Assembly: GCA_018335295.1 (NCBI GenBank)
Contig: JAGXKI010000008.1
Coordinates: forward strand, 635 to 64,634
DNA length: 64,000 bases
Origin: a bacterium
GTDB taxonomy: Bacteria > Acidobacteriota > Aminicenantia > Aminicenantales > Aminicenantaceae
Direction: 5' to 3'
The notes beneath the pieces were generated by a model. That model saw only the letters and a list, made by a program, of their open reading frames with translations, was not told the origin of the DNA and searched no databases. Positions 3,373 to 61,984 of this stretch are shown piece by piece. How positions within the stretch are numbered: the stretch's first letter is position 1; the number at the start of each line of letters is the position of its first letter. A program made the translations under genes and the position numbers.

Positions 3373-3500
3373 TTTTTTTGTAAACCTCCGTTTTTTTCTT
3401 TACATTCATTCTTTTTCTAAAGAAGTTTTTTCCTGGATAAGTTTTTTTCTTAGTTCGAAAATAGCTTGTTTGATCAAATTTTTAGGGGGGATCATTCTAA

Positions 3501-3531
3501 AGCGAGAAAGGAGAGACGGGCGAGAAAAGCG
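3501..3531. repeat. 31-bp intergenic repeat (core GAGACGGGCGAGAAAAG, GCGAGAAA submotif), second copy at 21394-21424
   Basis: About 27/31 identical between the two loci; both followed by a T/G-rich tract. Confidence 0.6.
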
Positions 3532-3639
3532 TTCATTTTGTTTATTTGGTCTGTTTGGTCTTTTTGATTGTTTCAGTTGAATTCCCTCAACCTTAACCTA
3601 AACCTCAACCTCTATTAAACTTTTGATTTTTGAATGAGT

Positions 3640-21272: not shown

Positions 21273-21323
21273 TTGAGAGCTATTTATAGCACAACCGCCT
21301 TTTATCGTAAAGGAGGGGAATGA

Positions 21324-21383
21324 GTTCGAAAATAGCTACTAATGAATCATATTCTTTTTATGGATGGGTCCTGTCACGGGATG
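21324..21383. repeat. Intergenic repeat family copy A (GTTCGAAAATAGCTACTAATGAATCATATTCTTTTTATGGATGGGTCCTGTCACGGGATG)
   Basis: About 93% identical to 32871-32930. Confidence 0.7.
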
Positions 21384-21393
21384 TATTTGATTA

Positions 21394-21545
21394 TGCGAAA
21401 AAGGCGAGACGGGCGAGAAAAGTGATCCTTGTTCCTTGCGTCGGTTTTGTTAATCGCGTTGCTTGCGTGTTTAGCGTTCCTTGAGTTGATTGCGTTTATT
21501 GCGTTGTTTGGGTTGAGAGAAAGCGAGAAATGCGAGAAAAAATGA
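21394..21545. repeat. GCGAGAAA-containing repeat (copy of 3501-3531) followed by 6-7 tandem degenerate TTGCGT/GCGTT units and further GCGAGAAA motifs
   Basis: Read directly; low-complexity, non-coding. Confidence 0.55.
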
Positions 21546-30282: not shown

Positions 30283-32871
30283 GTGAATGCTATGGTGTTG
30301 AGAAGAGTTTTCGCTTTATTTATAGCCCTTTTTTTTATGGGGAATTTCCTTCCTGCTCAAACGGCAGACCTGGGTCAGTTTATTTCTCAATTTAAGGAAA
30401 GCCTTGAAGAAAAAGATTTTTCCAGATATGTGAAAGCTTTTTCTCCAGAATTGAGGGAGGAAGAAAGAAAATTCCTGGACAAAATGTTCGATTCTTTGGA
30501 TATGGAGCGTGCTTCGGTCCACCGGGTTTATAAGAAGAAAAGAGAGGGGGATGAAGCTCGGGTTTACATGAATGTATTATTCCAGAATTCATATTCAGTG
30601 GTCATTGAGAATTGGCATTTGATTCTTCGTCAAAGAGAAGGGAAATGGTGGGTCAAGGAGAAAAGAGCCCCTGGGAAAATGAGGCACTTGTACCGACTGA
30701 AAATTCCCTCCCCAAGAGTGGAAAGAGTGGATCGGGTGGAGATAACCCATGTGGATATTCAGATTACCTTTAGGGATGCTCTGGTATTCTATGACAACCT
30801 TCCTCATCATGAAACGGCCCTTTTGATCATGGGGAAAGGGCAGATTTATTTTTCTCCCTCTTCTCCTATTGAAAAGCATCAGCTGGAAATGATTTATGAT
30901 AAGAAATTTCTTAAAGATAAGCTTGAATATGCTTATTTCCGGTTTTCTGATTCTTTTTTCAAAAACAACATTCAGATGAGCCAGGACAGTGAAAAAGATA
31001 TCCCCGTGGATCAGAAAGATAAAAATAAGGCTCATTCTCTTTTTTCCAAACATTATCCCAGATCTTTTACCGTGAGAAGTTCCATTAACAACGAGTTGCT
31101 TTCTTTTATACCTCAAGGAAAGGAAGCGGTTTTCGAATTTGAGGGAAAAGATATTGGGAATTATACTTACATTTATTCTCCGTTTTCGCGAGAAGAAGTG
31201 AATCTTTATCAATGGAAAGAAGAGAGGATTGTGAACCTCTATTCTCCGGGGGAGGGGGAGGATAAAAAAAAGCTTTTTCTCTCCTTTGACCAGATGTTTG
31301 ATGTCATGGATTATCAAATTGATATTGATTTTGATCCCCGAAAGTCTTATCTATCGGGAAAGGCTGAAATATTGATCTCTTCTAAAGTGGAATCCCTCGA
31401 TGGAGTGAAATTGAAGATCAACCCTCAAATGGAAATCCTTCAAATTCTCAATGAAGACAGACAAGAACTTCTTTACACCAAGGATGAACTCCGGAAAACA
31501 CTTTATGTTTATTTTCTTCGTCCCCCAGGTAAAGACCAAAAGACCTCCATTGAAATCTATTACCGGGGTGAGGTGGAGTCTAAAAAACCTTCTTCCGGGG
31601 TGCAAATGCACCGAGAAGGGAATTCTTTGAATATTTTAACTCCTCGATATGAAAGTTATCTCTACACTCGATCTTCTTATTGGTATCCGGCTCCGTTCAA
31701 GGATGATTATTTTACAGCCCGGTTGAAAATCATTGTTCCTCCCAAATACAGCATACTTTCCACCGGGAAACTCCTAGAAAAGAAAGCAGAGGAAGTGATA
31801 GAAAAGGAAAAAAACACGGCTTACGTTTTTGAATCAAAAACTCCTGTGAAATACCTTTCCTTTCTGGTAGGAAAATTAAGGCAGATAAAACAAGGCACCC
31901 AGCCGCTTCCTATTCAATACTTTCGGTCCATTGAAGTTCCTTCTTTAAGATTGAATACATTTAGGGAGACCCAAAAAATAATCCAGTTTTATGAAAGCCG
32001 ATTTGGAAATTACCCATTCCATAAACTGGACATTGTTCACAGACATTGGCCCACGAGTGGAGGTCAAAGCTCGGCTTCGTTGGTGGTTTTGAATATTCTG
32101 CCTGTGACACCCGCACGACATGCTCTTGTCAAGTCCACCAATCCCGTGGACCTGTCCAAATGGGAAGAATATTATCTGGCTCACGAAATTGCTCATCAAT
32201 GGTGGGGACAAGGGGTCACTTGGGAATCCTATCATGACCAATGGGTCAGTGAAGGGTTGGCTCAATATTCGGCAGCCCTTTACTTGAAAGAAAGGTATGG
32301 ACAAGGAGCCTTTCACCGGATTCTTAAAAAATTCAATAAATGGACTGAAAAAAAAGCCCACTGGGGACCGATCATTTTGGGATCGAGGATCAGCCATTTT
32401 GATTTTAAGGCCTTTCAAGCGATTGTGTATAATAAAACCTCTTTGGTCTTGAATATGCTCAAGGATGTAATTGGGGAAGAGACGTTTTTTAAAGGATTGA
32501 AAAAGTTTTTCCAGGATTATCGATTTAAGAGGGCCAGCAGTTATGATTTTTTTAGAACCATCAATTCACTCACAGACAAAGATATGGGGTTATTTTTTGA
32601 GAAATGGTATGAAACTTACCAACTGCCGGAATCCCGCATTTCTCACCATGTTCAGAGGATACAGAATGGATATCTGCTTAAGCTGAAGGTGGAGCAGATT
32701 GAGGACAAATTTGTTTTTCCTCTTTGGGTGGAATGGAAGGAGGAAGGGAAGAGAGTCACCCGAAAATTCATTGTCCGTGAGAAAAATCAAGAATTCTTGA
32801 TCCGCTTAGATCATAAACCAAAACACATCACCATCAATCCCCATCACAAGGTTCCCGGAAAATTCCATTAG
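30283..32871 (+). CDS. Secreted M1-family (aminopeptidase N-like) zinc metallopeptidase
   Basis: Signal peptide; HEIAHQWWG...WVSEGLAQY (HExxH-x18-E gluzincin). Confidence 0.8.
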   Translation: MNAMVLRRVFALFIALFFMGNFLPAQTADLGQFISQFKESLEEKDFSRYVKAFSPELREEERKFLDKMFDSLDMERASVHRVYKKKREGDEARVYMNVLFQNSYSVVIENWHLILRQREGKWWVKEKRAPGKMRHLYRLKIPSPRVERVDRVEITHVDIQITFRDALVFYDNLPHHETALLIMGKGQIYFSPSSPIEKHQLEMIYDKKFLKDKLEYAYFRFSDSFFKNNIQMSQDSEKDIPVDQKDKNKAHSLFSKHYPRSFTVRSSINNELLSFIPQGKEAVFEFEGKDIGNYTYIYSPFSREEVNLYQWKEERIVNLYSPGEGEDKKKLFLSFDQMFDVMDYQIDIDFDPRKSYLSGKAEILISSKVESLDGVKLKINPQMEILQILNEDRQELLYTKDELRKTLYVYFLRPPGKDQKTSIEIYYRGEVESKKPSSGVQMHREGNSLNILTPRYESYLYTRSSYWYPAPFKDDYFTARLKIIVPPKYSILSTGKLLEKKAEEVIEKEKNTAYVFESKTPVKYLSFLVGKLRQIKQGTQPLPIQYFRSIEVPSLRLNTFRETQKIIQFYESRFGNYPFHKLDIVHRHWPTSGGQSSASLVVLNILPVTPARHALVKSTNPVDLSKWEEYYLAHEIAHQWWGQGVTWESYHDQWVSEGLAQYSAALYLKERYGQGAFHRILKKFNKWTEKKAHWGPIILGSRISHFDFKAFQAIVYNKTSLVLNMLKDVIGEETFFKGLKKFFQDYRFKRASSYDFFRTINSLTDKDMGLFFEKWYETYQLPESRISHHVQRIQNGYLLKLKVEQIEDKFVFPLWVEWKEEGKRVTRKFIVREKNQEFLIRLDHKPKHITINPHHKVPGKFH

Positions 32872-33016
32872 TTCGAAAACAGCTACTAATGAATTATATT
32901 CTTTTTATGGATGGATCCTGTCACGGTATGAGAGGAATGGGGTCGTGTCTTGCATTATGACATTTTCCCCTGAAATGAATTTGTTGAGGGAGGCGGAGCC
33001 GCCATGGGGAATTAGC
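32871..33016. repeat. Composite intergenic repeat copy B (modules shared with 21324-21383, 55867-55908 and 61470-61510)
   Basis: Three separable modules each matching another locus; contains GGCGGAGCCGCC hairpin. Confidence 0.7.
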
Positions 33017-33028
33017 TTTTTCCTTTAG

Positions 33029-34420
33029 TCAGGAGGAGAGGATATCTCGGGTGTCGATATCGAGTCTTTTGATCATTTCGTTCAGAGTAGTGGGCTTGAC
33101 TCCTAGAAATCGGGAAGCCTTTTTTTGAACTCCGTTGGCCTTTTTTAAGGCATCAATGATCGCTTTCTTTTGGTAGTGCTTCATTTGTTCTTTGAGGGTC
33201 ATGTGAGCCGAGGCGGAGGTGGTATTTTCCTTTTCTTGGGGCGGGGCTAAGAAAGAGGGAGGAAGATTTTTTCGAGTAATGATTTTGGTCTTGGTTAAAA
33301 CCACGGCTCTTTCGATAAGATTTTCTAATTCTCTGATGTTTCCAGGCCAATCATAGTTTTCCAAAATTTCCATCACATCTTGGGATACTTCTTGGATTTC
33401 CTTGTTGTTTTCTTTGCTGTAGATGTTCAGAAAATGCTTAACTAAAAGAGGAATATCTTCTTTTCTATCCCTTAAAGGAGGAAGTTCAATTTTAATGACA
33501 TTCAACCGGTAGAACAGATCTTCCCGGAATTTATTCTGGTTGATGAGCTCTTCTAAATCAGCATTTGTGGCTGCGATAACCCGAACATCTACTTTTATGG
33601 TACTGGTTCCTCCGAGCCTCATAAATTCTCGGTCTTGCATGACTCTTAGAAGTTTGGCTTGAGTTTCCATGTTGAGAGTGGATATTTCGTCAAAGAAAAT
33701 AGTCCCCTTATCTGCGGCCTCAAACAATCCCTCTTTTTGCTGTACCGCCCCAGTGAAGGCTCCTTTGACGTGACCGAAAAGATGGCTTTCCAGTAAATCA
33801 GGGGGGAGGGAACCGCTGTTGACAACAATAAATGGATAATCCGAGCGGTTGCTGTTTTGGTGAACTGCTCTGGCGACCAGTTCCTTTCCAGTTCCACTTT
33901 CTCCTTGGATAAGAATGGTGCTTCGAGAGGAGGAGGTGGCTTTTATGGTTTCGAAAACATTGTTCATTAATTTGCTTTTGCCGATTATACTGTTAAAACT
34001 AAATTTCTTCTGGAGCTGACTTTTTAACCGGAGATTTTCTTCTTGAAGTTTCTTATGTTCAAGGGCTCTTTTAACCGTCATCAGCAGGTCTTCGTGTTTA
34101 AAAGGTTTCTGGATGTAATCATAAGCTCCTGTTTTCATAGCGGAAATAGCGGATTCCACCGAAGCATAGGCGGTAATGATGATGATCACGGCCGTAGGAT
34201 CCCTTTTTTTGATCTTTTTAAGGACTTGAAGGCCGTCCATTCCAGGCATGAGCAGGTCCAAAAGGATGAGGTCAAACGGTTGGGAGGAATGTTTTTTTAA
34301 AGCTTCCTCTCCCGTCGAGGATATTTCAAGTTCATATCCTTCAGAGGAGAGAAGATCTCCTAAAATTTCATGGATGATGGGTTCATCATCCACGATGTGA
34401 ATGATTCCTTTTTTACTCAT
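33029..34420 (-). CDS. NtrC-family sigma-54-dependent response regulator (REC + AAA+ + HTH); PilR-like by context
   Basis: DLILLDLLMPGMDG receiver, GESGTGKE, GAFTGA, C-terminal HTH. Confidence 0.85.
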   Translation of the reverse strand: MSKKGIIHIVDDEPIIHEILGDLLSSEGYELEISSTGEEALKKHSSQPFDLILLDLLMPGMDGLQVLKKIKKRDPTAVIIIITAYASVESAISAMKTGAYDYIQKPFKHEDLLMTVKRALEHKKLQEENLRLKSQLQKKFSFNSIIGKSKLMNNVFETIKATSSSRSTILIQGESGTGKELVARAVHQNSNRSDYPFIVVNSGSLPPDLLESHLFGHVKGAFTGAVQQKEGLFEAADKGTIFFDEISTLNMETQAKLLRVMQDREFMRLGGTSTIKVDVRVIAATNADLEELINQNKFREDLFYRLNVIKIELPPLRDRKEDIPLLVKHFLNIYSKENNKEIQEVSQDVMEILENYDWPGNIRELENLIERAVVLTKTKIITRKNLPPSFLAPPQEKENTTSASAHMTLKEQMKHYQKKAIIDALKKANGVQKKASRFLGVKPTTLNEMIKRLDIDTRDILSS

Positions 34421-43147: not shown

Positions 43148-45288
43148 AAAAAATATCTGTTTTGATCGTAATAAGTTTACTGTTTTGGAGCTGTGCTACG
43201 TTCAGCCGGAACTATAAATTGGGAACAGAGGAAGCCGTGAATAAAAATTGGGATAAGGCTGTGGAATACTACCAGAAAGCTCACTTGAACCATCCTAAAA
43301 ATTCAGTCTACCGTCTCGCCCTGATCAGAGCTAAGATCTCAGCCAGTTACTCTCATCTTATGAAAGCCCGAAACCTCGCTTCTCAGGGAAAAAAGGAAGA
43401 GGCTGTCCAAGAATATGAAAAAGCCTTCTCTTATGATCCCTCAAACCGAAGGATTGCCCAGGAAATTAAAGAACTCACTGAGGAGAAGGAAAAAGAAGAA
43501 GAAAAAACTCTCAAGAGAGAGATTGAACCTCCGGTGAAGCTTCAAGTGAGGGAGGAAAAGTTAGATCTTAAATTTCATGAAGCCAGCCTCCGGTCTATCT
43601 TTATGGCTCTGGGCAAACATGCGGGAATCAACATCATGTTCGATCAGCAGTTTAAAGATATTCCCTTTACCATCAATCTGGAAGGAATGACCTTTGAACA
43701 AGCGATGCATTCGCTCTGTCTGGCATCCAAAAATTTCTACAGGGTGATCGATGCGAAAACTCTTATTGTGGTCCCTGACCAGCCTGTTAAGAGAGCCCAG
43801 TACGAGATTGAGGCCATCAAAACCTTCTATCTTTCCAACATCAAAGCTGAAGAGATTCAAGGTTCTCTTCAGCAGATGCTCCGGACTCAGTACAAAGCGC
43901 CCACTATCATTGTGGATAAAAACCTGAACTCCTTGACCATAAGAGATTCTCCTCAAGCGGTGGAATTGGCCCAAAAGGTTATCCGCCTTTGGGATAAGCC
44001 GAAAGGGGAAGTGGTTATCGATATGGAAATTATGGAGGTTTCCAGGAAAAGGATGAGAAAATTGGGACTGGACTTCAATCAATACATCGTGGGCATGAGA
44101 TATGGAGGAACTGGAGGTGGGGGAGAGACAGAAGAATCCGGATGGGTCAATATGAAAGATATCGATTTTTCCAAGGCAGAGAATTATCAATTTAGTCTTC
44201 CTTCTTCCCTGCTTCAATTTTTAGAGACCGATTCGGATACCAAGATTATTTCTCAGCCTCGGCTGCGGGGAATTGGAGGTGAGGAGATCGAATACATGGT
44301 GGGAGATCGAATCCCCATTCCCCGTACTACCTTCCAGCCGATGGCTGCCGGCGGGATCAGTCAGCAGCCGGTAACCTCCTTTCAGTTTGAGGATGTGGGG
44401 ATCAATGTGAAAATCACCCCCAGAATTCATAAGGAAAGGGAGGTAACCTTGGAATTGGAGATGGAGATCAATGCCCTAGGGGGCTCCGGTTATGCAGAAA
44501 TCCCTATCATTTCCTCAAGAGAAGTCAAGAATACCCTCCGTCTCCGGGATGGAGAAACCAATATCCTGGGTGGTTTGCTTAAAGAGGAAGAGAGAAAAAC
44601 CATGAAGGGAATTGCGGGCCTAAAAAGCATCCCTATTTTGGGAGATTTGTTTTCCAACACCGATCAGACTATTGAGCAGACCGATGTGATTCTCACCATT
44701 ACTCCCCGGATCATTCGGGAAATTCCTTTGACTGAGGAAGATTTAAAGCCTTTATGGGTGAATTTATCTGGAATCTCTCCCACCCAGAAAGGCACCCAGA
44801 AAGTGCCTGAAGAAGAACTTATGGAACGTATGCGGAGGGAAAGGAGGACCCCGGAAAAAGAAGAACAGGCTGGAGAAAATCAGGTGTTCCTTCATCCCTC
44901 TGACTTGAGTGTTCCTCAAGGTCGGGAATTTCGGGTTAACGTGAATCTTCGGAGCGCTAACGAAATCTCCAACCTCTCGGTCAATGTGAATTTCAACTCC
45001 CAAATACTGGAATTAAAGGAAGTGGTTCGAGGCACGGCTGTTCGGCAATTAGGAGAAAAGGCTCCGTTTTTGAGTAATATTGACAATTCTTCCGGGAGCT
45101 GCACCATCGGTTTTTCCAGTCCCGATGTCAGCCAGGGATATAAAGGAACCGGAAGGTTGGCCACGTTGGTATTTGTTTCAGAAGCAAAAGGAGAGACCGA
45201 AATTTCTTTATCCAGTGTCACAGCCAATGCTCCTTCTGGGGAACCGGTCTCTTTGAACAGAGGAACTTCCCAAGTTAAAGTCAAATAA
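43144..45288 (+). CDS. pilQ: Type IV pilus secretin PilQ with N-terminal TPR lipoprotein-like module and C-terminal cohesin-like extension
   Basis: Signal/lipobox-like LFWSC; TPR helices; Secretin_N (NolW) segments; secretin core ...GIAGLKSIPILGDLFS...VILTITPRII; about 190-aa C-terminal beta-sandwich-like tail. Confidence 0.85.
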   Translation: MKKISVLIVISLLFWSCATFSRNYKLGTEEAVNKNWDKAVEYYQKAHLNHPKNSVYRLALIRAKISASYSHLMKARNLASQGKKEEAVQEYEKAFSYDPSNRRIAQEIKELTEEKEKEEEKTLKREIEPPVKLQVREEKLDLKFHEASLRSIFMALGKHAGINIMFDQQFKDIPFTINLEGMTFEQAMHSLCLASKNFYRVIDAKTLIVVPDQPVKRAQYEIEAIKTFYLSNIKAEEIQGSLQQMLRTQYKAPTIIVDKNLNSLTIRDSPQAVELAQKVIRLWDKPKGEVVIDMEIMEVSRKRMRKLGLDFNQYIVGMRYGGTGGGGETEESGWVNMKDIDFSKAENYQFSLPSSLLQFLETDSDTKIISQPRLRGIGGEEIEYMVGDRIPIPRTTFQPMAAGGISQQPVTSFQFEDVGINVKITPRIHKEREVTLELEMEINALGGSGYAEIPIISSREVKNTLRLRDGETNILGGLLKEEERKTMKGIAGLKSIPILGDLFSNTDQTIEQTDVILTITPRIIREIPLTEEDLKPLWVNLSGISPTQKGTQKVPEEELMERMRRERRTPEKEEQAGENQVFLHPSDLSVPQGREFRVNVNLRSANEISNLSVNVNFNSQILELKEVVRGTAVRQLGEKAPFLSNIDNSSGSCTIGFSSPDVSQGYKGTGRLATLVFVSEAKGETEISLSSVTANAPSGEPVSLNRGTSQVKVK

Positions 45289-45387
45289 GAAAAATTTACA
45301 TCCTTACTCGATTCGTAATCAATAGGAATCTTTTTTGGGGAATGAAGCACCTTTTTCCAGAGATAATGGCTGTTTTCTTTATAAAGA

Positions 45388-45495
45388 GGATGGGTGGCAC
45401 GGGATACCCTACCGCCCGCCCGCAGCGGAAGGGACCCACTGGGGGATGGGTGGAGTGAGGACGGACGGAGGGTATCCCGTGACAGGACCCATCCT
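45388..45495. other. GC-rich structured intergenic element: 13-bp inverted repeat CACGGGATACCCT / AGGGTATCCCGTG around a 48-nt GC-rich loop; its 3' end is an inverted copy of the repeat-family core (CCGTGACAGGACCCATCC)
   Basis: Read directly; composition contrasts with AT-rich surroundings. Confidence 0.35.
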
Positions 45496-45561
45496 AAAAA
45501 AATTCTTGTTGGTAACCCCCGATTGACTATTGCGGGTGATTGGGCTAAAATTCACCAGACT

Positions 45562-45635
45562 GGCGGTGTAGCTCAGTCGGTTAGAGCATGCGGCTCATAT
45601 CCGCAGCGTCGGGGGTTCGATTCCCTCCACCGCCA
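45562..45635 (+). tRNA. tRNA with CAT anticodon: elongator tRNA-Met or tRNA-Ile2 (lysidine). Not initiator, since base pair 1:72 is G:C
   Basis: Cloverleaf folded by hand: 7-bp acceptor GGCGGTG/CACCGCC, D and T arms, anticodon loop CTCATAT; no encoded CCA. Confidence 0.85.
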
Positions 45636-45731
45636 TTTATTTTTGTTTTTGATGAGCACTGAGAAAATTTGCTCTTTTGCATTCGTCTTTCAGACATCCA
45701 GATATTTTAGAGGGGATAAAGAATTCCATAG

Positions 45732-55857: not shown

Positions 55858-55866
55858 AATTAGGGT

Positions 55867-55908
55867 TGTGTCTTACATTACAACATTTTCCCCTGAAATT
55901 AATTTGTT
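55867..55908. repeat. Intergenic repeat copy C (GTGTCTTACATTACAACATTTTCCCCTGAAATTAATTTGTT), matching 32943-32983
   Basis: About 37/41 identical; sits between convergent pilY1 and pilD. Confidence 0.65.
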
Positions 55909-55946
55909 TGGGGTAACTAGGCTGATAGGAGAAATGAAGTTGATTG

Positions 55947-60064: not shown

Positions 60065-60934
60065 ATGACAGATTGGGGAGGAGCCCTCAAAAAGGCTCTT
60101 GATTTTCAGGTTGCTATTTTGGGAGTTCCTTTTGATGAAAAATCAAGCTATATGAAAGGCCCTTCCCTGGCTCCTCAAGCCATCCGGAAAAGCTCCACGA
60201 GTGGAGCTATAAATTGCTTCACTGAGTCAGGATTAGATTTACATAGCGAAACGGTTTTAACAGACCTGGGAAATGTGGAAATGAGGGGAGATTTTTCCTC
60301 GGTTTTTTCTAAGGTTGAGAAAAAAGTTTCCCATATCCTTGGAAAAGAAGCCATGCCCGTGATTTTAGGGGGAGATCATTCGGTGAGCAATCCAGTGATT
60401 CAAGGGTTTTGTCACAAGTTTTCTTCCTTGGATATACTCCATTTTGATGCCCATCCCGATATGTACGAGGAATACAAAGGGGATCGGTTCTCTCATGCCT
60501 GTCCTTTTGCCCGTATCCTGGAGAAAGGGATAGTCCGTCGTCTTGTTCAAGTAGGGATAAGAACGGCTACCAAGGAGCAAAGAACCAAAGCATCTCAGTA
60601 CAATGTTCAAATGATGGAGATGAAAGACATTCCTCCTCATTTTTCCTTGGAGTTTGAGAATCCTCTTTATATTTCTGTGGATATGGATGTCTTGGATCCA
60701 GCCTTTGCTCCGGGAGTTTCTCACTGGGAGCCAGGCGGACTTTCCACAAGGCAGCTTTTAAACATGGTCCTGGGTTTAAAGGCTCAAATCGTGGGAATGG
60801 ATGTGGTTGAGCTCAATCCTCTTCGAGACCATTTGAATGTTACCGCGGCCGCGGCAGTGAAAATCATTAAAGAGGTGATTGGCAAGAAGGTAAAAAATGA
60901 GAAAGAAAAGGAGATTAAAGAGCGGATTAAATGA
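60065..60934 (+). CDS. speB: Agmatinase / arginase-family ureohydrolase
   Basis: GGDHSVS, DAHPD, SVDMDVLDPAFAPG Mn-binding motifs. Confidence 0.85.
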   Translation: MTDWGGALKKALDFQVAILGVPFDEKSSYMKGPSLAPQAIRKSSTSGAINCFTESGLDLHSETVLTDLGNVEMRGDFSSVFSKVEKKVSHILGKEAMPVILGGDHSVSNPVIQGFCHKFSSLDILHFDAHPDMYEEYKGDRFSHACPFARILEKGIVRRLVQVGIRTATKEQRTKASQYNVQMMEMKDIPPHFSLEFENPLYISVDMDVLDPAFAPGVSHWEPGGLSTRQLLNMVLGLKAQIVGMDVVELNPLRDHLNVTAAAAVKIIKEVIGKKVKNEKEKEIKERIK

Positions 60935-61385: not shown

Positions 61386-61469
61386 TGATTCCCTTCTTCA
61401 GGAAAATTTAACATGGCAGGTATGCGGAGTCAAGATTTCAAGATGTTTGATTTAGATTTTCGAACCATT

Positions 61470-61510
61470 TTCATTTGTTGAAAGCGGCGAAGCCGCCATG
61501 GGGAATTAGC
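61470..61510. repeat. Intergenic repeat copy D (TTCATTTGTTGAAAGCGGCGAAGCCGCCATGGGGAATTAGC), matching 32975-33016
   Basis: Shared GGCG(G/A)AGCCGCCATGGGGAATTAGC block. Confidence 0.65.
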
Positions 61511-61956
61511 CTGGAATCATTATTTTGAATGTGTTGAATGTTGTTTTGATTAGAAAAAGATAAGATATTTTTATACTTTTATATAACTATATATACTTAT
61601 TATGTGATTTCAAGAGATCAAAAAAGAGACGGGAACCATTGAATGAACCGAGGAGGAAAATGGATGAGTGGAATAAGGGCGGGCTGTTGTCAGCAAAAGG
61701 GGGGTTGATGATGGGAACCAAAAAGGTGGGAGTTCTCTCCAGCCCGCACAAGAGAACCAAACTAATTATTACAGAAAAACAATAATTTGTAAAGGAAAAA
61801 AATAAATTTTTATATAATATATTTAATATCGATGACCTCTTACCTTCCCATATCCCAAAGCGTTTTCCGCTATATGGAAGAGAGTGATTGATATAACATG
61901 AAGAGATTTTTAAGATAAAAATTTCCGATTTGCCTTGACAATCGGGAAAAATTATC

Positions 61957-61984
61957 TTGACATTAAGGTTCATTTCGTATAAAT
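61957..61984 (+). promoter_or_regulatory. Candidate promoter: TTGACA (61957-61962), 15-nt spacer, TATAAA(T) (61978-61984); second TTGACA at 61935-61940; 8-bp palindrome AAGCGCTT at 62014-62021
   Basis: Read directly in 670-bp AT-rich intergenic region. Confidence 0.3.

Follow-up and report, generated by a model that had tools for sequence, protein, structure and literature searches.

Miniature inverted-repeat transposable elements (MITEs) with long imperfect palindromes are known from several groups of bacteria, including ERIC/IRU in enterobacteria, Correia/NEMIS in Neisseria, RUP in Streptococcus pneumoniae and Nezha in cyanobacteria. Mosaic extragenic repeats, such as the bacterial interspersed mosaic elements (BIMEs) and clusters of repetitive extragenic palindromic (REP) sequences of Escherichia coli, are likewise already well known as a kind. 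The present analysis concerns repeats that invite comparison with both kinds, in a 64-kb stretch of DNA (64,000 nt of contig JAGXKI010000008.1 from a member of the Aminicenantaceae; hereafter the window), where an earlier note had singled out the intergenic block 32871–33016 as a composite of repeated modules. This block is a presence/absence polymorphism, missing in two relatives (loci L002 and L046). It can be regarded, with moderate confidence, as a recent 146-nt insertion of two non-coding, non-autonomous repeats, alpha (approximately 60 nt) and beta (approximately 80 nt), which together with a third unit, gamma, would make up a lineage-specific, BIME-like mosaic, alpha being derived in part from a palindromic MITE of approximately 200 nt. 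The repeats are real and non-coding, and their GC-rich core comes from a MITE family marked by inverted arms, target duplications and compensatory changes; it is this family, rather than the flagged block, that has the most unusual aspects.

Repeats were sought by an unbiased search of the whole window, with low-complexity families set aside. The matches described here are the strongest direct and inverted repeats found in the 64 kb, and they lie at six sites (designated F, A, B, C, D and E), all of them intergenic. The flagged block is site B. Its left part (module 1) matches site A with 92% identity over 64 nt (21320–21383 versus 32867–32930), close to the approximately 93% over 60 nt previously claimed. 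The stated match of module 2 to the pilY1/pilD spacer (site D) was found at 86% identity over 51 nt (32940–32990 versus 55863–55913), and that of module 3 to site E at 89% over 38 nt (32979–33016 versus 61473–61510), with 24 of 25 positions conserved in the 25-mer originally given. The GC-rich core GGATGGGTCCTGTCACGG is indeed present, inverted and exact, at 45477–45494 (site C), and this match extends to 28 nt (21355–21382 and 32902–32929 versus 45474–45501, with 93% and 86% identity, respectively). The chance level was determined with dinucleotide-preserving shuffles of the window: the expected number of matches was 0.04 for the core, 0.00 for the left part of module 1 and 0.01 for module 3, and the observed count was reached by no shuffle. 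The 17-mer of module 2 is not significant alone (27 of 100 shuffles); its alignment of 46–51 nt is significant within the window (blastn E = 2e-9).

All five repeat sites listed earlier were recovered, the list being incomplete in that it missed the sixth, site F (3452–3537). The division of site B into three independent modules did not stand. Since the matches of modules 2 and 3 overlap at ATTTGTTGA, they constitute one contiguous unit, beta, and site B consists of two units: alpha (32871–32930, + strand), of which the first 24–28 nt (TTCGAAAACAGCTACTAATGAAT...) are lineage-specific, and beta (32937–33016, + strand), whose matches to sites D and E overlap and co-align. The latter, terminating in GGGGAATTAG(C), includes a small GGCG-GAGC-CGCC hairpin. 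The units are combined differently from site to site: A and F carry alpha and gamma (alpha being diverged in F), B carries alpha and beta, and D and E are beta variants. The motif GTTCGAAAAY occurs four times in the 64 kb, only at F, A, B and, inverted, at E. No match to the MITE or to any other sequence searched was found for the first 24–28 nt of alpha, for beta or for gamma.

Like the BIMEs and REP clusters of E. coli, alpha, beta and gamma are short, extragenic and non-coding, their order varies by locus, and they are often located just after stop codons. Unlike them, they do not contain a REP-type GC-rich palindrome with a GTAG head, are not arranged as inverted pairs, have so far been seen in three copies each, have no known RAYT (REP-associated tyrosine transposase) gene and have TTAG at their junctions. 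In place of the imperfect GC-rich palindrome of 20–40 nt typical of REPs there is only GGCGGAGCCGCC, the short hairpin of the earlier note, which exists as a stem of just 4–5 bp.

Comparison with related genomes revealed filled and empty sites. The spacer at site B is 157 nt long in the window, compared with 12 nt between the stop codons in L002 (a Logan contig of a relative with the same convergent gene pair and a regulator 90% identical) and 18 nt in L046 (a more distant metagenome-assembled genome (MAG) from NCBI). The extra DNA relative to L002 is exactly 32871–33016 (CCATTAG/TTCGAAAA...GGGGAATTAGC/TTTTTCC versus CCATTGATTTTTTC). At site D, the stop codons are 2 nt apart (TAAgcTCA) in L043, which comes from the same relative population as L002 and has a pilY1 85% identical, versus 89 nt in the window; in L044 (79% identity) this position is occupied by an unrelated 59 nt. 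The spacer at site E measures 96 nt without beta in L043, versus approximately 275 nt in the window, and the insertion appears to be absent there. With B and D empty in this relative population, and E apparently so, the family has expanded after the split from relatives whose flanking proteins are 85–90% identical. In L044, the tRNA-Met and promoter of site C are present and the hairpin element is absent. Synteny with L045 is interrupted at site A, and the gene upstream of this site has an ordinary terminator behind it in L046. Of the Logan contigs from the same strain (SRR14023877), L001 stops within beta, at window position 32986, and L128 just past the stop codon of rplS, at approximately 3374; assemblies commonly break at repeats in this way.

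Contrary to the earlier description, the core does not stand alone as an inverted module. It forms the 5′ end of a 107-nt hairpin that is complete at 45388–45494 (− strand) and cut after 21 nt in A and B. Site C as a whole (45336–45505, − strand) is a nearly complete copy of a MITE of Aminicenantes. A profile built from 25 full copies of this MITE gave three nhmmer matches in the window: copy C (45505–45344, − strand; E = 7.7e-38; profile 35–201, one outer arm missing), A (21349–21384; E = 1.5e-7; profile 33–68) and B (32895–32928; E = 4.2e-6; profile 32–65). Copy C retains one outer arm (45343–45368, GAAGCACCTTTTTCCAGAGATAATGG on the + strand); the missing one would have lain on the side of the tRNA-Met promoter. 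With its flanks, this copy folds at −78.7 kcal/mol (z = −5.7). The MITE-derived part of alpha (36 nt in A) comprises the T-rich sub-terminal left arm and the first 21 nt of the core, and it breaks off at the same point of the core in A and B (CACGG[G/T]ATG). The CACGGGAT variant carried by this fragment in copy A is otherwise found, among all copies seen, only in copy C of the window. Alpha may thus have arisen when a MITE copy resident in this genome was truncated 21 nt into its hairpin and fused to other DNA; the shared breakpoint suggests that the resulting chimera was copied to further sites after the truncation.

The MITE family was identified by an exact scan of 185,579 species-representative genomes with GGATGGRTCCTGTCACGG, which yielded 40 loci, with approximately 35 expected by chance as estimated from the collection size. 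Some 25 of these loci, all in MAGs of Aminicenantes, represent a single element. A scan of the metagenomes of the Joint Genome Institute (JGI) gave 81 loci, approximately 60 of them real, and up to four copies with the exact core are present per GTDB genome. In every such copy the 18-mer core is the 5′ end of a 105–112-nt hairpin ending in CCGYGCCACCCATCC. Full copies have inverted outer arms of approximately 40 nt, the left one being GGAAGCATC-Tn-CCGTGAT...TTTTTTA and the right one its complement, and their paired ends are GGAAGCATC-Tn-CCGTGAT... and ...ATCACGG-An-GATGCTTCC. Short copies measure approximately 195–210 nt in total and long ones approximately 340 nt.

Direct repeats of 9 bp abut the arms, with at most one mismatch in 14 of 28 full copies, versus 4.6% for mismatched partners. 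Comparison of 24 distinct cores showed that 94% of cells are paired and that nine pairs have changed on both sides, compared to 3.8±1.1 in shuffles (0 of 500 reaching this number) and 2–5 in slid controls. Such covariation shows that the hairpin is maintained; the compared sequences are related, and it is not proof of RNA function. The copies lie between long open reading frames (ORFs), the few overlaps with ORFs being probably spurious; the element has no coding capacity. The flanking genes are both on the + strand in 16 cases, both on the − strand in 16, convergent in 13 and divergent in 12, that is, with no bias of orientation or context. The small size, inverted arms, 9-bp duplications, dispersed copies and filled/empty polymorphism identify the hairpin element as a MITE, and the 9-bp duplication is characteristic of a trans-acting DDE transposase.

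In being non-coding and intergenic, about 200 nt in size and composed of one long hairpin, the Aminicenantes MITE is similar to ERIC, Correia, RUP and Nezha. It also shares with them inverted outer arms with target duplications of fixed length (9 bp) and the presence of several copies per genome, variably present or absent between relatives, while the size variants with internal deletions or insertions are reminiscent of ERIC in particular. In contrast to the usual pattern of MITEs, its conservation across species is much higher in the inner 105–112 nt than in the terminal arms. Further differences from the four families are a long core of approximately 250 nt with an additional domain of several stems, the association of one core with at least two unrelated kinds of arm, the lack of a known partner insertion sequence, and a host that is an uncultured phylum-level lineage. 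The literature searched contained no description of MITEs or REP elements in Aminicenantes, and the family is a previously undescribed one in a phylum-level group known only from metagenomes.

Individual copies also differ in position between genomes. In L110 (3440–3951, compared with window 45336–45636), a distant relative with 54–67% protein identity, the element lies between tRNA-Met and tilS, and in the window it separates pilQ from tRNA-Met, so that one tRNA gene has received independent insertions on its two sides. L042 carries the MITE in a spacer that is empty in the window. Many of the GTDB genomes with the element (binchicken MAGs) are entitled "uncultured Eubacteriales" (L003, L006, L007, L010, L013, L015–L017, L020, L022, L027, L035, L037 and L040–L042). 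Since L042 contains orthologues of the kinase, pilC and pilB genes of the window in the same order (63–79% identity), these MAGs are relatives of the window organism and their titles probably misname the taxon.

Several variants of the MITE were observed. A long form of the core, 240–253 nt, is present in L111 (1400–1681, − strand) and also in L037, L064, L073, L089, L101, L106, L110 and L126. Its approximately 150 additional nt are apical and adopt a multi-branch fold; for L111, the predicted energy is −140 kcal/mol (z = −4.7) on the GGATGGG strand versus −128.9 kcal/mol (z = −3.1) on the other strand. From copy to copy, the first hairpin of the long form shows compensatory differences (GGATTTG/CAAATCC, GGATTGG/CCAATCC and TCTGTCTTT/AAAGACAGA). 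The short form looks like a deletion derivative of the long one. A preference for the GGATGGG strand based on U-G wobbles was not upheld across copies: 22 of 26 short forms have a slightly more stable fold on the reverse strand. The forward strand gives the better fold for the long form and has two conserved U-G pairs.

A second, unrelated outer arm (GCTCATCACAATAATGAGT...TTGCAATGAGCC) is found approximately 60 nt upstream of the core in L055, L059, L066, L091, L103 and L110; the occurrence of two unrelated kinds of arm on one core indicates that the conserved entity is the core and not the ends. L015 (6847–7052) and L028 (2294–2499) represent the same locus, with mutually reverse-complementary flanks and the inner part in opposite orientation, which reflects either inversion of the segment enclosed by the arms or two separate insertions at a single site. 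Many copies are rearranged, with internal deletions or foreign inserts of approximately 90 nt in the hairpin and variable breakpoints (L035, L065/L070, L077, L094, L100, L105, L017, L007, L031, L036, L085, L119 and L120), and the deletion in L035 appears to lie between two ACCCATCC direct repeats. The palindrome appears to be a hot spot of rearrangement. In L025 (6645–6692) the upstream ORF seems to enter the left arm, stopping 1 nt before the core; if so, the insertion supplied the last codons and stop codon of that gene.

The borders of the units in the window share the tetranucleotide TTAG, of which there are 135 occurrences in the window (0.0021 per position). It was found at seven junctions: on the left of F, B, D and E and on the right of B, D and E; the sequence on the left of A is TGAG. 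The units are flanked by short direct repeats, namely ATTAG at B, TTAGGG at D and TTAG at E. In B and E, the TTAG on the right doubles as the conserved terminus of beta, so that a target duplication and a specificity for target or terminus look alike. Insertion sequences of the IS5 family use a YTAR target and generate a 4-bp duplication, and those of the IS200/IS605 family insert at a fixed tetranucleotide such as TTAC without duplication. The presence of TTAG on both sides of B, D and E resembles the target choice of these families and may serve as a lead only. The units differ from IS5-type elements in not having the inverted ends that IS5-type transposases need, and from IS200/IS605 in not having well-defined sub-terminal hairpins.

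Alpha and beta may be pictured as spreading by a mechanism that recognizes or duplicates TTAG, a step that is inferred from eight junctions. This might involve either a 4-bp duplication at a YTAR-like target or a single-strand, HUH-type insertion beside TTAG of an element that itself ends in TTAG. Successive insertions beside resident units would then build the mosaics. With the second option, the end of every resident unit would become a new target, which would explain both the mosaics and the resemblance of the left flank of E (GTTTGATTTAG) to the interior of F (GTTTGATCAAATTTTTAG).

Several observations weigh against a recent insertion of mobile repeats. The composite 32871–33016 has no terminal inverted repeats, its ends (TTCGAAAACAGC... 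and ...CATGGGGAATTAGC) are not complementary and no long-range pairing was detected, and consequently alpha and beta are not classical DDE-type MITEs. The description of the site B repeat as REP- or MITE-like, given in the earlier note, is broadly right: it is apt as regards the insertion polymorphism (B and D) and the core, which lies in a genuine MITE, and inapt for the composite, which has neither inverted ends nor a significant fold. The junction between alpha and beta within B is AATGG and not TTAG, a misfit unless mutated. No partner transposase was found for the MITE or for the alpha/beta units, and arm-like motifs in the loci compared led to nothing convincing as a transposase-bearing element. 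Each of alpha and beta is present in three copies only, all within 71 kb of one genome, so that the number of copies, the consensus ends and the role of TTAG are deduced from a handful of junctions. Nor is there any sign of spread beyond the lineage: alpha, beta and gamma are absent from approximately 0.9 Mb of loci of relatives, the three module probes gave no exact match in viral contigs, and the left part of module 1 gave none in the JGI metagenomes. When all six spacers were compared by BLAST with approximately 130 loci, among them some 50 kb of sequence from the two nearest relatives and a further 7 kb of this strain, only the MITE part recurred; blastn searches with B and C against plasmids, and with C against phages, gave no match. 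Finally, the short spacers in the relatives could reflect deletion there and not insertion here, although two outgroups agree in the case of B.

The strongest competing explanation, which is possible but rather doubtful, is that the units are not mobile at all and were spread between intergenic regions by illegitimate recombination, template switching or gene conversion (for instance by patch repair at microhomologies such as ATTAG), the mosaic being the debris around a decaying MITE. The lack of inverted ends in alpha and beta would be expected in this case, the junction repeats are short enough (4–6 nt) to be microhomologies, the other MITE copies have many deletions, inversions, foreign inserts and variable breakpoints, and site A lies at a synteny break. 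However, the boundaries of the units recur at unrelated loci (the start of alpha at A, B and F, the end of beta at B and E), the insertions at B and D fall cleanly and exactly between two stop codons that are both intact, and TTAG is present at seven junctions though rare in the window.

A more specific version of such mobility, unlikely as it stands, would assign the units to REP/BIME-type or IS200/IS605-derived elements (palindrome-associated transposable elements, PATEs) moved by an HUH tyrosine transposase of the RAYT or TnpA type. Enzymes of this class cut single-stranded DNA beside a fixed tetranucleotide, using sub-terminal hairpins. The TTAG that directly precedes the units and recurs at their 3′ ends, the absence of inverted ends and the BIME-like architecture are in agreement with this possibility, as are small sub-terminal hairpins (GAAT-NAT-ATTC in alpha, and GGCG-GAGC-CGCC located 13 nt from the end of beta). 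These hairpins are, however, very short and weak, with no conserved GTAG head, and the 6-nt direct repeat of D resembles a target duplication, which HUH elements do not make. Moreover, a Pfam sweep covering 30 of the 55 window ORFs of at least 90 aa detected no transposase, RAYT or TnpA, and the copies are too few to define cleavage sites.

It is quite unlikely that the core is a functional mobile structured RNA or single-stranded DNA (e.g. a partner, resembling a guide or a ribozyme, of a transposition system in Aminicenantes that has gone unrecognised); on this view alpha and beta, bounded by TTAG, would form a further, end-less class of mini-elements with a single-strand mode of movement. 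A functional core would explain why it is better conserved than the arms, why at least two unrelated kinds of arm are associated with it and why it shows compensatory changes.

The earlier note had named terminator-associated small RNA (sRNA) modules as an alternative, which is not supported. That the units are functional RNA modules, whether 3′ untranslated region (UTR) or terminator elements or sRNAs sharing seed or structure modules, is very unlikely. The location of B and D directly after the stop codons of convergent genes, the small GC hairpin of beta and the strong structure and compensatory changes of the MITE core might speak for it. However, no intrinsic terminator (a GC stem-loop followed by a T-run) was found in 32700–33200 or in 45250–45700, none of the MITE copies is terminator-like, and the MITE family, unbiased in orientation and gene context, is not preferentially placed after stop codons. 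The folds of A, B, D and E on both strands were no better than those of shuffles (z from −0.9 to +2.3; for B, +0.5 and −0.9), and the five substitutions between A and B and the indels among B, D and E show no conserved pairing pattern. The suggested search of covariance models gave no family for the modules: with Rfam 15, only tRNA-Met reached the gathering score in the window, and for the MITE nothing credible was obtained at E ≤ 10 around copy C, at the gathering score in 11 loci or at E ≤ 5 on a long-form copy. In addition, close relatives do without these sequences. A candidate sigma-54 promoter in beta was also rejected, as the GG-N10-GC present in B has lost its GC in D.

The coding objection raised in the earlier note was examined as well, and the idea that module 1 is the start of a family of small protein genes can be dismissed as extremely improbable: copy A has an ATG after a Shine-Dalgarno-like AGGAGG and a 54-codon ORF (21320–21484), the frame is open across the whole of B and phmmer returned 21 matches at E < 1e-3, but the start is lost in copy B (ATT, not ATG), all five A/B substitutions change the amino acid, gamma is read in different frames in A and F, Pfam gave no match, the phmmer matches are all large repeat proteins (Flg_new, T9SS-type) that align via a repeated 15–20-residue NESYSFYGW motif only, and the GWVLSR codons are the 5′ arm of the hairpin, which is non-coding in dozens of loci.

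The units have the look of selfish or neutral DNA of an ordinary kind, and no cellular function is needed to explain them; an influence on 3′ UTRs is possible and not indicated, and no new cellular function is suggested. For annotation, these sequences are to be treated as repeats and not as genes, terminators or sRNAs, and they break short-read assemblies of this lineage. They may be of use as markers of recent insertion that separate very close populations of Aminicenantes. The conserved structured core and the end-less, TTAG-bounded units are modest leads to the transposase or transposases responsible.

Judged by the proteins encoded around the repeats, the window belongs to Candidatus Aminicenantes. 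Its genes recognized in the Pfam sweep are housekeeping genes and a type IV pilus cluster. The statement that most copies sit just past stop codons or between convergent genes is correct for B, flanked by the stop codons of the convergent M1 peptidase and sigma-54 response regulator genes, and for D, between the convergent pilY1 and pilD. It does not apply to the other sites. A is preceded by a glutamate-synthase-like gene and followed by an M50 peptidase gene on the same strand, F lies between rplS and rnhB, also on the same strand, C separates the pilQ secretin gene from tRNA-Met (tRNA-Met promoter, 45523–45551), and E is placed between a divergent pair consisting of a GAF-domain gene and a small ORF.

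Site A extends over 21324–21516 (+ strand). Its alpha copy (21324–21383, + strand), recognized by repeat and pattern matches to B, is followed by gamma (GCGAAAAAGGCGAGACGGGCGAGAAAAG) and a 9-nt tandem array (together 21395–21516, + strand; 86–93% match to 3502–3537). The array itself is degenerate (21456–21516; period 9, GCGTTGATT × 6.8). Site F (3453–3537, + strand) consists of the start of alpha (TTCGAAAATAGCT, 3453–3466), a diverged middle part and gamma (3502–3537). The segments 3452–3466 and 3502–3537 match 21323–21337 and 21395–21430 of copy A, and the two spacers can be aligned over approximately 110 nt. The spacer of F also contains a tandem array, CCTCAA × 4.7, at 3585–3612, and the arrays of F and A are both located within G/T-rich tracts.

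Site D (55858–55946, + strand) is a diverged beta-type unit that makes up the whole pilY1/pilD spacer, with TTAGGG on both sides; its 3′ half aligns to beta more weakly than the 51-nt part with 86% identity. Site E (61455–61510, + strand), bounded by TTAG on both sides, is a short beta-type unit, in which a 10-nt alpha-like start, ATTTTCGAAC (GTTCGAAAAT inverted), precedes a beta with an internal deletion that has kept its 3′ half.

In the vicinity of site E, a small ORF is present at 61661–61786 (+ strand; MDEWNKGGLLSAKGGLMMGTKKVG...), the middle of which is common to a longer ORF in L043 (from 13038 onward), and an ORF at 61587–61973 (− strand) is probably spurious. An arginase-family gene (60065–60934), located between the flavin reductase and GAF-domain genes, is absent from this position in L043, the relative with 85% identity.

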